From NCBI GenBank assembly GCA_964486045.1, contig CAZALK010000012.1, positions 111,206 through 175,205 on the forward strand: a DNA stretch of 64,000 nt, given 5' to 3'. The notes under the pieces are model-generated. The model did no database searches. It was not told the DNA's origin and worked only from the letters and a program-made list of their open reading frames with translations. Positions within the stretch are counted from its first letter, which is position 1. Each line of letters opens with the position of its first letter. Of the stretch, positions 61,518 to 64,000 are shown one piece after another. The stretch is from an uncultured archaeon (lineage in GTDB: Archaea > Asgardarchaeota > Lokiarchaeia > Sigyniarchaeales > SOKP01). A program made the position numbers and the translations under genes.

Positions 61518-63338
61518 CTATTTAATATAACTCCCAAACCCGGGGAACTTCTTTAATTGATCTGAATTAAAGATTGGACCATCTTTGCAAACAGAAATAT
61601 CATGATTATCTCCCACGCAGCACGATCCACATAAACCCACTCCACATTTCATTTTTCTTTCAAGAGATGCTTGAATTTTAATATTTTTTAATTCAGAAAT
61701 GTCTAATACTTTTTTCATCATAACTTCCGGACCACATGTAAGAATTAAATCTATATTGTTATCCGTTATTATTTCTTCAATGCTGTCGGTTACAAAACAT
61801 TTTCTACCAAAAGAACCATCATCAGTAGTACATAATGTATTAGGAATTAGCTCCAATAATCTATCAGCAAAGACCAGTGAGGCTTTATCTTTTGCTCCTA
61901 TATTGACAAAGATATTTTTTTCAGTAACCTTTAATGATTCAACAAGTGATGTAACGGCAGCAATTCCCATTCCACCGCCTACAATAAGAATATTTGTAGC
62001 ATTTTCATAGCTCCATGGGTTTCCAAATGGACCTCTTATGCCAATAGAACTCCCTGCTTCAAGATCAAATAACCTAGCGGTTCCCTCGCCAATTTTTTGA
62101 ACTGTAATTTCAATGAGATTTCCTTCTACTTTTGAAATTGACATTGGTAAAAAATCTATATCTGGGAGCCACAAAAATACAAACATTCCTGGTTTATACG
62201 CTTTAGCTATCCTCTCATTTCTCAAAGTAAAGCTCTTAATGGAGGATGAGTGTTCTGTTATTGATTCAATTTTAATAATATTTGTTTTATACCTAGTAAT
62301 ATCTAAAACTAAATCTTCCTTAGTTTTTTGAAGAGTTTTAGTTTTAAGCATTCCTCTTTCAATGGCTAAATCATATATCTTCTTTCCTCTTTCCGTTCTA
62401 ATAATCAATGTTTTCCAGCCATCTTCACTGCCTATATTGCCTATAGAAATATCTGCAAATGAGGATGTATAGTCAGAACATGAAAAGCAAGCATTCCGAA
62501 TTGATTTATCATAAATATAATTTAATGGAATCTCTTTTATCCCAGACTTTGTATGGATCTTCATTTTAAATGTATTTTTTTCAGCATCTACTTTAATAAT
62601 TTCGTCAGCACTTACTTCATATTCACTAAAACATTGGCTCAAAAGTTGATTGTAATAAGTTCCAAAACAAAAAGTCCCAATTGCCAGTGTGATTAGATCA
62701 TATGCCTCATAATCAAACATAGGGTGATATTGTATTTTCCTTAATGATTGAATTTGACAAGGAGTCCCAACGACTGCAATGTCGCTAAATTCTTTATTAA
62801 TAGCATCCCCTACAAGCGATATTGTTGGACTCTGGCTTGGTTTGTAGCCTACTCCTTTGAAAATTTGCTGTTGATTTTCTGCGATTATAGGAAACGGTAT
62901 AAATTTTTCATCTTTATCAGTTATTATCGAACAATCAATTAAACCTGCTTTCAATGCTGTATATAGTAAAGTTGTGATTGGACCTGCCTCTAGGGGTACT
63001 TTTTCTCTTGCTTTGTCTGTTAACTGCACTGTAACTATGTCTAAATAATGTCCTAAAATTTTGTCTTGCACTTTTCCAAATACCCATTGATCAAGTACTG
63101 ACAAGGGAATTTGTTCTATTCCCGTTTTTGGGCATAAATTATAGCATAAACCATATCCATCTCTACAAGTGTTGCTATCTTTACAGGAACCATCTTCAAT
63201 AGGAATTTCTTTTTGAGAATCAAATTTAATATTTGCACAAAATGCACCACACGCTCCACAATATACACATTTACCGGTTCTTATAATTTCAGAATCCAAT
63301 TCTCCCCAACCCTTTTTAATCCTATTAAGATACATCAT
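61518..63338 (-). CDS. FrhB/FdhB-like F420-binding subunit fused to a PyrK-like FAD/NAD(P)/[2Fe-2S] electron-transfer domain
   Basis: CVYCGAC, VGTPCQ, GTFC, C..C.D....ADIS.G; then RGPFG, GGGMG, CGPE, CGVGLCGSC. Confidence 0.85.
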   Translation of the reverse strand: MMYLNRIKKGWGELDSEIIRTGKCVYCGACGAFCANIKFDSQKEIPIEDGSCKDSNTCRDGYGLCYNLCPKTGIEQIPLSVLDQWVFGKVQDKILGHYLDIVTVQLTDKAREKVPLEAGPITTLLYTALKAGLIDCSIITDKDEKFIPFPIIAENQQQIFKGVGYKPSQSPTISLVGDAINKEFSDIAVVGTPCQIQSLRKIQYHPMFDYEAYDLITLAIGTFCFGTYYNQLLSQCFSEYEVSADEIIKVDAEKNTFKMKIHTKSGIKEIPLNYIYDKSIRNACFSCSDYTSSFADISIGNIGSEDGWKTLIIRTERGKKIYDLAIERGMLKTKTLQKTKEDLVLDITRYKTNIIKIESITEHSSSIKSFTLRNERIAKAYKPGMFVFLWLPDIDFLPMSISKVEGNLIEITVQKIGEGTARLFDLEAGSSIGIRGPFGNPWSYENATNILIVGGGMGIAAVTSLVESLKVTEKNIFVNIGAKDKASLVFADRLLELIPNTLCTTDDGSFGRKCFVTDSIEEIITDNNIDLILTCGPEVMMKKVLDISELKNIKIQASLERKMKCGVGLCGSCCVGDNHDISVCKDGPIFNSDQLKKFPGFGSYIK

Positions 63339-63339
63339 T

Positions 63340-63965
63340 TTAGTTCTCCTCCTTTAGTTTTCTTTCAAAATCTTGAGCTTCCTTTTTGCCAAATTCAAAT
63401 GCTTCCATATTTTTCTCTATTGTGGAGCCTGGTACAAATTCTTTTAAAGTTTCAATCGCAGATTCTTCAGAAATTATGCCAGAAAGTATCGTAAACGCTC
63501 CAAAAAGGATTGAATTTCCAAAAACAATATTCCCAAATTTCTCAACTGCTATTTTTTGAACAGGAATACTTAACGCTTTTTTGATTTTATCTGCGGTACT
63601 AAATTTCTCAATTGTAGAGGGATCCCAAATTAAATATCCTGTGTTTTCACCTTTCTTAAAATAATTAGGATTAACACCGGCAGCTGATTCCCCGGACAGT
63701 ACTATTAAAAAATCATATGGTCTCAAAGCTTGAGGATAATCGATAGATTTCACATTTTTATCTAAATCGACTACCACTTCCGCCCAACAACGGCCTCCTC
63801 TTGCTGAAGCGGAATAGGCCTCAGTTTGTGTGGCTGCTAAGTTTTCATAAAGTGAAGCAGCAGTAATTATCATTTTACTTAGGGTTATGACTCCTTAATC
63901 ACTATGAGGAAATCTCAAAAATTTTGACCGCCATACCCCGCAATACGTATTTCATATCTTGCCAA
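63340..63965 (-). CDS. 2-oxoacid:ferredoxin oxidoreductase gamma subunit (KorC/PorG-like, 198 aa); exons 63965-63924 and 63894-63340
   Basis: Spliced N-terminus MARYEIRIAGYGGQGVITLSKM; TEAYSASARGG, N.EAFE.G; GGAGGAG upstream of TTG. Confidence 0.9.
63895..63923 (-). other. BHB-like intron (29 nt) in the gamma-subunit CDS
   Basis: Helix GGTC/GATT, bulge AAA, inner stem TGAG/CTCA, outer stem TATGGC/GTCATA; in-frame TGA and frameshift if retained. Confidence 0.85.
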
Positions 63966-63968
63966 TCT

Positions 63969-64000
63969 TTACTTCTCCTCCATTGCTATTTTCTTTATTT
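63969..64000 (-). CDS. Probable 3' end of an upstream gene (perhaps another oxidoreductase subunit)
   Basis: ...IKKIAMEEK* ends 3 nt before the TTG start of the gamma subunit. Confidence 0.4.
   Translation of the reverse strand, partial: IKKIAMEEK

Follow-up and report, generated by a model that had tools for sequence, protein, structure and literature searches.

Comparative sequence evidence that a 29-nt insert in the korG gene of a Lokiarchaeon is very likely a BHB, tRNA-type mRNA intron

Results

The korG coding sequence is divided between two reading frames

The window, by which we mean the whole 64,000-nt stretch of DNA that was analyzed, ends with a minus-strand gene (korG) for the gamma subunit of a 2-oxoacid:ferredoxin oxidoreductase whose first codons are out of frame with the remainder, and 29 nt separate the two parts. 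This arrangement raises the question of whether the gene is broken, whether it encodes a shortened protein, or whether the 29 nt are removed from its RNA. Contig C12, part of a 5.18-Mb genome with 31% G+C, stops where the window stops. Two small contigs of the same bin (G000 C40 and C45; 5.8 and 2.4 kb) have 58-59% G+C against the 31% of the genome and are likely contaminants. The features of the locus, in window coordinates, are as follows.

63969..64000, minus strand: 3' end of korB (...KIKKIAMEEK and stop), upstream of korG and truncated by the contig end
63963..63965, minus strand: TTG start codon of korG, ~10 nt 3' of GGAGGAG (63981-63975)
63924..63965, minus strand: korG exon 1, 14 codons, LARYEIRIAGYGGQ; with the TTG start it reads TTG-ARYEIRIAGYGGQ
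63895..63923, minus strand: putative 29-nt korG intron, AATTTTTGAGATTTCCTCATAGTGATTAA, between exons in different frames
63340..63894, minus strand: korG exon 2, 184 codons plus stop, GVITLSKM...KEEN
61518..63338, minus strand: 606-aa fusion of an FrhB-like and a DHOD-B-like electron-transfer domain, downstream of korG in the same operon

Exon 2 opens GVITLSKMIIT, has its stop at 63342-63340, and is read in a different frame from exon 1. Without splicing, the exon 1 frame runs into a TGA (63917-63915) after 16 residues, and the sole ORF listed at the locus begins at the ATG at 63873 and encodes 177 aa. Removal of the 29 nt yields a gamma subunit of 198 aa, which is also how long uninterrupted orthologs are. 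The position of the insert is ambiguous over three positions, as AA terminates both exon 1 and the insert.

Identification of the protein as a gamma subunit rests on its profile match, on the gene order korA-korB-korG, and on the G-x-G-G-Q-G segment at its N terminus. Exon 2 matches Pfam POR (PF01558) with 85.5 bits against a cut-off of 27.4. The PF01558 alignment begins at profile position 4 and that of NCBIfam NF006323 at position 14, on the G at 63894; because both begin past the start of their profiles, the family N terminus is absent from exon 2. We infer, from sequence alone, that the missing part is exactly what exon 1 would supply, and the glycine-rich N terminus is found in the predicted spliced product only. 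The operon order is seen in contig L001, where korA (439 aa) and korB (301 aa) precede korG and the 606-aa FrhB/DHOD-B-like protein follows it. Scores against NCBIfam equivalogs fall under their cut-offs, so they do not assign a substrate specificity to this 2-oxoacid oxidoreductase.

The GGAGGAG ahead of the TTG start lies inside the 3' end of korB, the upstream neighbor. The start is supported by the ortholog P0002, which likewise begins LARYE, and by an in-frame ATG, GTG or TTG two codons ahead of RYE in most intron-bearing relatives. Six loci (L033, L034, L042, L044, L049 and L051) have none of these codons in the open stretch before (L)SRYE and carry 45-60 nt of AT-rich sequence that separates exon 1 from the stop of korB; in L034, a TTG directly follows that stop. 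Such loci could have a further intron right after the start codon or could use a non-canonical start; either is possible.

The insert recurs in independent assemblies and in other lineages

The nearest database proteins are 90-91% identical to the predicted product and have 198 aa (14 + 184), with (F/Y)GGQGVITLSKM uninterrupted; their source names suggest Lokiarchaeota/Promethearchaeota. Among species of the same genus, ten have the uninterrupted frame and one (G022) has the insert. We scanned collections of species genomes and metagenomes with a degenerate pattern consisting of the exon-2 codons, any 20-50 nt, and the exon-1 codons. The species genomes yielded five others with an insert at exactly this site of korG, all of 29 nt. 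The metagenomes yielded 14 contigs, of which L041 has 30 nt and the other 13 have 29. Sixteen distinct 29-nt sequences from this site make up the alignment used below (A2). The comparison with orthologs, which the earlier note had proposed as a check, was thus favorable to its reading: close orthologs run through GGQGVITLSK without interruption, and other lineages keep a 29-nt insert at exactly that site, with substitutions that preserve pairs or compensate each other. No database protein equals the spliced product of an intron-bearing locus, so that the databases offer no indirect trace of a spliced RNA.

We also considered that the insert might be an artefact of assembly, a frameshifting insertion of recent origin, or a lesion in a pseudogene. 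In favor of such explanations, the window contig ends only 77 nt upstream of the insert, and short contigs and loose ends lie at 63925-63975 in the probable source run. Against them, the same insert occurs in independent assemblies (at least six species genomes and 14 metagenome contigs), both exons are under purifying selection (see below), and no contig joins the exons across the 29 nt in the DNA contigs of four runs. An identical insert lies midway in a 23.7-kb contig from a different sample of the same study as the likely source, where korA-korB-korG precede a 606-aa FrhB/DHOD-B-like protein, and DNA contigs from two further studies span the insert without a gap and show two substitutions within it. 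We regard these explanations as all but excluded.

In the probable source run, we also observed a minor contig (depth 10 versus 240) with 29 extra letters somewhere in 63655-63953, and the several short contigs and loose ends already mentioned cluster together. A co-occurring strain may bear a second korG intron, at the site called site 2 below, and strain heterogeneity may explain why the contig ends at 64000; both remain possibilities. The metagenome contig L048 has two copies, 3.6 kb apart, of the segment from exon 1 through the intron into exon 2 (L048:383 and L048:3959), and the first copy ceases to resemble korG after about codon 34.

The insert and its flanks can be paired into a BHB-type motif with a relaxed 3' bulge

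The insert and the exon bases around it can be paired in a bulge-helix-bulge (BHB) arrangement as follows.

63930..63935 with 63891-63886, minus strand: exon-exon helix UAUGGC/GUCAUA, 6 bp
63926..63929, minus strand: 5' strand of the central helix, GGUC (exon codons GGU-C(AA)), 4/4 pairs with GAUU at 63900-63897
63923..63925, minus strand: 5' bulge AAA, canonical, with the predicted cut between 63924 and 63923
63901..63922, minus strand: 22-nt intron hairpin with closing pairs A-U, U-G and U-A, an internal loop, the apical stem UGAG/CUCA, and the loop AUUUC
63897..63900, minus strand: 3' strand of the central helix, GAUU; GAUC, GACU, GACC, GUUU or GUUC in relatives
63892..63896, minus strand: 3' bulge, with the predicted cut between 63895 and 63894

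Of the 29 nt of the putative intron, 1 belongs to the 5' bulge, 22 to the hairpin, 4 to the central helix (its 3' strand), and 2 to the 3' bulge. The AA of the 5' bulge is unchanged in 16/16 sequences. The 3' bulge is of a relaxed form and has two readings, either AAG (3 nt) closed by a single C-G pair or AAGGA (5 nt) closed by the 6-bp exon-exon helix; read from the alignment, a 3-nt 3' bulge with 2-bp closure is possible in 12 of the 16 relatives. EndA, the archaeal splicing endonuclease, cuts after the second nucleotide of each bulge. Cuts placed by this rule join GGQ to GVITLSK and regain the 198-aa frame.

These results bear out what the earlier note had claimed about the locus. It had described an ORF from 63873 without the family N terminus, a TTG-initiated exon upstream, 29 nt, and then a new frame, all of which held in the sequence. 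The proposed pairings of GGTC (63929-63926) with GATT (63900-63897) and of TATGGC with GTCATA, together with the AAA bulge, all held, as did the relaxed 5-nt 3' bulge (AAGGA, 63896-63892). The claim that cleavage by the BHB rule restores GGQG held at the level of sequence; splicing itself is inferred.

Covariation links exon bases to intron bases

We counted pairs on A2 for a named structure with three parts: exon-exon helix, central helix of 4 bp, and intron hairpin. In this alignment, 87% of cells were paired, compared with 36-55% when the 3' partners were slid by 1-3 columns. Cells in which both partners had changed numbered 21, as against 8.1 +/- 2.5 in shuffles, and none of 500 shuffles reached as high a count. 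The A2 sequences are related, so this control overstates the significance.

The central helix was 92% paired across the 16 sequences, with one pair changed on both sides and two on one side: GGUC is found with GAUU, GAUC, GACU or GACC, GGAC with GUUU, and GGGC with GUUC. In L036, a synonymous U-to-A change in the exon is offset by an A-to-U change in the intron, and in L045, an exon U-to-G change is likewise offset by an intron A-to-U change. The intron stem was also 92% paired and showed compensatory changes at 4 of its 7 pairs. The exon-exon helix was 78% paired across relatives without covariation, because both of its strands are constrained by coding. In some relatives the central helix is weak, with 2/4 pairs in L043 and L046 and 3/4 in L038 and L047.

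Thermodynamic folding did not pick out the motif. The single-sequence fold of the insert region was not distinctive (z = -0.98); RNAalifold on the 16 sequences returned the apical stem and the exon-exon helix without the central helix; Rfam and tRNA scans of the window gave no matches; and neither the insert nor its hairpin core had repeat copies elsewhere in the genome. That the structure goes beyond chance rests on conservation and covariation in 16 distinct homologous sequences and not on the fold of any single one.

Both exons are under purifying selection

After removal of just the 29 nt, the window, L033, L037 and L045 have complete frames of 198-199 codons, and all 14 of the complete intron-bearing loci give a frame of 197-199 aa once one or two inserts of 29/30 nt are removed. 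Between the window and L033, dN/dS is 0.07 at a dS of 1.47, and the intron is 83% identical, far above expectation for saturated neutral sites. Both korG exons are under purifying selection. Since both are selected and their frames are regained on removal of the inserts, exon 1 must be read together with exon 2, and this excludes the pseudogene and truncated-protein readings.

The truncated-protein reading holds that the insert is retained, so that the locus produces the 177-aa protein from the ATG at 63873 or no gamma subunit at all, and exon 1 is a leftover. Gene callers do give exactly the 177-aa product (P0001), and the ATG at 63873 has a purine-rich stretch upstream. However, exon 1, although out of frame with exon 2, retains RYEIRI(A/S)G(F/Y)GGQ in all 16 distinct intron-bearing sequences. 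The protein is conserved there, the codons change synonymously, and synonymous sites have reached saturation. An in-frame exon 1 start codon is kept at most loci. The truncated product would also lack the glycine-rich start of the POR domain, and the structure of the insert covaries, which that of a dead insertion would not. We consider this reading very unlikely.

A second alternative is that the RNA remains intact and the ribosome skips the gap by programmed translational bypass, as in phage T4 gene 60. Gene 60 is known for a stop codon and a hairpin after the take-off site, and korG resembles it in having a gap of tens of nucleotides, with a stop codon and a hairpin after the corresponding site, between coding parts that are in register. 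In addition, the insert ends in CAA, the same as the take-off codon CAA, in 7 of 16 sequences. Unlike korG, gene 60 depends on take-off and landing codons that match. In korG such a match is not conserved, the would-be landing triplet being UAA in the window and UAU, AAA or CAU in 8 others, and the rpoA1, EF-2 and histone inserts described below lack matched codons. The repeated CAA is explained by the GGUC/GAUC pairing together with A-rich bulges, and covariation ties exon bases to intron bases in BHB geometry, which argues against bypass. This alternative is, in our judgment, also very unlikely, and RNA-level removal of the insert remains the preferred reading.

As a side observation on the codons at the splice site (63929-63924 and homologs), the Gln codon of GGQ is CAA in 17/17 distinct intron-bearing sequences and the preceding Gly is GGU in 14/17. 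In ten intron-free relatives, Gln is CAA in 7 and CAG in 3, and Gly is GGU in just 2. This pattern suggests a constraint of the splicing motif on synonymous sites at GGQ; the sequences are not independent.

Relatives carry further putative intron sites in korG

In addition to the site described above (site 1), relatives carry putative introns at two others. Site 2 has 29 nt between TEAYS and A and is found in L034 (L034:1300-1460), L035, L042, L044 and L049-L051. Site 3 has 30 nt between AAAR and GG and is found in L036, L038, L039, L041, L043 and L046; its motif is canonical, with AGCU paired to GGCU or GGUU, 3-nt bulges on both sides, and a stem of 8-9 bp. Lineages differ in combining site 1 with site 2 or with site 3. 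L041 has, at GGQ/G and shifted by one base, an unrelated and fully canonical 30-nt BHB intron (L041:1628-1700) with GCCA/UGGU and a 9-bp stem, which could represent a replacement, extreme divergence, or a second insertion at a favored site. The rule of cutting after the second bulge nucleotide yields the frame-restoring junction at site 2, at site 3, and in the L041 intron.

Similar inserts interrupt other genes of the same genome

The earlier note had also claimed that mRNA introns of this genome reach other genes, and on the evidence of inserts this held: two putative introns lie in a histone gene of the window, and others in rpoA1, EF-2 and uS10. The single-copy rpoA1 gene (G000 C13:44100-44129) has a 30-nt insert containing TAA between GHFGH and IELARP. 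One EF-2 copy (C13 ~92040-92075) has an insert between AH and IDHGKTT, and the second EF-2 copy, on C10, is uninterrupted. A 31-nt insert lies in uS10 (C9 ~148815-148850). These three genes are essential and serve information processing, and their inserts have in-frame stops and canonical BHB geometry. The histone-fold gene (1498-1773 of the window, plus strand) has two 30-nt inserts, at 1563-1592 and 1693-1722, whose central helices have 4/4 pairs (GGCU/GGCU and UCUA/UAGG) with 3-nt bulges, and removing both gives an open frame of 71 aa. The EF-2, uS10 and histone inserts, of 30-31 nt, have 4-bp helices and 3-nt bulges, and the cut rule fits these as well as the rpoA1 insert. Because no cell can do without an RNA polymerase subunit, we infer that these inserts must be removed at the RNA level.

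We attempted a genome-wide census of frame-restoring BHB candidates in five ways, and each time junctions between neighboring genes and open off-frames swamped the signal. Overall, BHB geometry was no more frequent than in a mirror-image control; the sole excess, a small one at 30 nt (10 versus 3 in the mirror control), appeared when candidates had to have a perfect 4-bp helix and an inner stem of 6 bp or more. Because of this background, we give no intron count for this genome. Inspection of the census by eye recovered rpoA1 and likely cases that include a mevalonate kinase, a MoxR ATPase, and a few others. Our impression, which is not a count, is that the genome likely has tens of such introns and not thousands.

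Further likely introns of 30-32 nt, for which conserved motifs are the sole basis, lie at G000 C11:28700 (+), C3:187687 (+), C5:195264 (+), C1:759264 (+) and C8:10449 (-); these 0-based offsets locate the central helix by its 5' strand and follow the strand given, and for (-) the count starts from the contig end. One census candidate splits the mevalonate kinase between LFGE and HFVVYG, one splits the MoxR-type ATPase between DEIDKAD and IEF, and there is a possible intron at the N terminus of a DnaJ-like gene.

A proposed splicing path and the enzymes that could carry it out

Taken together, we conclude that the 29 nt of korG are very likely a BHB, tRNA-type mRNA intron of a Lokiarchaeon; there is no RNA evidence, and splicing is inferred. 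In the path that we propose, the last bases of exon 1 in the transcript, GGUC, would base-pair with the GAUU close to the 3' terminus of the insert. The 4-bp central helix so formed would have AAA as the bulge 3' of its exon strand and AAG(GA) as the bulge 3' of its intron strand, and the 22-nt hairpin would close the intron. EndA would cleave each bulge behind its second nucleotide, and ligation of the exons by RtcB would give ...GGC GGU CAA followed directly by GGA GUC AUA.... The predicted spliced junction is GGCGGTCAA joined to GGAGTCATA, and the predicted junction peptide is IAGYGGQGVITLSK. The spliced RNA would encode the 198-aa protein with an intact GYGGQGVITLSK N terminus, and the unspliced RNA would yield only the 16-residue peptide or the 177-aa protein without the first strand and the glycine-rich loop.

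Genes for the required enzymes are present. The genome encodes two EndA-family (PF01974) proteins, of 201 aa (C7:36262-36867) and 200 aa (C10:136871-137473), and an RtcB gene lies on C1. The first EndA paralog is nearest to PDB chains 3P1Z_B, 3AJV_B and 2ZYZ_B, which we take to be crenarchaeal heterotetramer EndAs. (Alpha-beta)2 EndA enzymes with an L1 loop tolerate relaxed BHB variants (bioRxiv 10.64898/2026.10.13.758758; PMC5829648), and the work of Kaneta et al. makes the relaxed 3' bulge of the korG intron plausible as a substrate.

The insert could instead be removed from the RNA by machinery other than EndA and RtcB. The non-canonical 3' bulge leaves room for this, as does enzymology that is untested in any Asgard archaeon. 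On the other hand, geometry and cut rule match EndA substrates at several independent introns, and both enzyme genes are present. A stretch of 29 nt is too small for a self-splicing intron. Other machinery seems very unlikely and cannot be excluded without biochemistry. For EndA-type splicing, the sequences show the anatomy of the locus, a conserved site, a covarying structure, two exons under selection, a cut rule that also works at other introns, and genes for the enzymes; that cleavage and ligation take place in vivo, and that EndA is the enzyme, are inferences.

The intron appears to be old

In the protein tree, which has 39 sequences, the basal grade of the clade consists of intron-bearing rows, and further such rows are scattered among intron-free ones higher up. 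Parsimony on this tree gave 7 changes, at least five of them forced by well-supported branches, and the outgroup families lack the intron. Given the position of intron-bearing sequences as a basal grade, the intron appears old. Sampling for this tree was biased, since intron-bearing sequences were deliberately sought; with this reservation, it is likely that the korG intron is old and was precisely lost several times, as described for cbf5 (PMC2738675), for which a cDNA-mediated route of loss has been proposed.

Discussion

Here we describe a well-replicated comparative case of an apparent archaeal mRNA intron in a second kind of gene and a different phylum, with 16 distinct sequences, three intron sites, and several losses. 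It has a practical consequence for annotation. Public protein sets contain truncated or wrongly started products of intron-bearing korG, for example P0001 (177 aa) and P0052 (192 aa), which shows that annotation pipelines are blind to these introns. Genes of this kind may therefore be miscalled as broken or missing when metabolism is reconstructed from Asgard MAGs.

The inserts in korG, rpoA1, EF-2, uS10 and the histone gene together suggest, in the absence of RNA evidence, that some Asgard archaea routinely splice mRNA with the tRNA endonuclease. A bolder reading is that a gene can hold several of these introns, that they survive family-level divergence and are lost again and again to the exact base, and that an occupied site may come to hold an unrelated intron, as in L041. 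We consider this reading more likely than not. If it is true, mRNA splicing by protein enzymes is routine in close archaeal relatives of eukaryotes, with gain and loss dynamics like those of eukaryotes, and public gene annotations of such archaea are systematically truncated at intron sites.

Among the closest known systems is the cbf5 pre-mRNA intron of Crenarchaeota, which is cut by heteromeric EndA (Watanabe 2002; Yoshinari 2006; Yokobori 2009, PMC2738675). Both are short inserts in protein genes bounded by a BHB-like motif, and both interrupt a conserved motif, so that removal is needed for function. Both are ancestral in their clade with precise, lineage-specific losses, and both are mis-annotated by gene callers. 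The korG intron differs in its phylum (Lokiarchaeia, Asgard), in its host, a gene for a subunit of a central metabolic enzyme, in its uniform 29-30 nt, in having up to three intron sites per 600-nt gene across relatives, and in being one of many inserts in one genome, those of rpoA1, EF-2 and uS10 included. Splicing has been shown experimentally for cbf5, whereas for korG it is inferred. In the literature that we searched, cbf5 in Crenarchaeota is the only confirmed case of archaeal pre-mRNA splicing, and a 2025 paper and a 2019 review cite that case alone. We found no description of BHB introns in Asgard protein-coding genes in this literature, whose coverage is incomplete, so that absence is not proven. 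The mechanism that we infer for korG is thus the known one of cbf5-type BHB introns; the phylum, the gene, the uniform 29-30 nt, the multiple sites, and the apparent spread over many genes are undescribed in the literature searched.

The same motif is familiar from the BHB introns of archaeal tRNA and rRNA, which share with korG the 4-bp helix, the bulge 3' of each strand, the cut after the second bulge nucleotide, and the presumed enzymes, EndA and RtcB; such introns are abundant in Asgard tRNA genes (bioRxiv 10.64898/2026.10.13.758758; PMC5829648). Unlike them, the korG intron has an mRNA as host and no tRNA body for recognition. One strand of its central helix and its outer helix are made of codons, and the same bases are therefore constrained by both structure and coding; korG could serve as a model for how a coding sequence and a splicing motif share bases.

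In eukaryotes, HAC1/XBP1 splicing, which uses IRE1 with tRNA ligase or RtcB, depends on a different nuclease and recognition motif, and is regulatory and stress-induced, whereas nothing shows regulation for korG. The two are alike in that a short mRNA intron (26 nt in XBP1) changes the frame on its removal, and in HAC1/XBP1, too, a protein endonuclease acts on stem-loops and RtcB seals the ends. If mRNA splicing of the kind inferred here is routine in Asgard archaea, it bears on the origin of introns and on the origin of the tRNA and HAC1-type splicing pathways.
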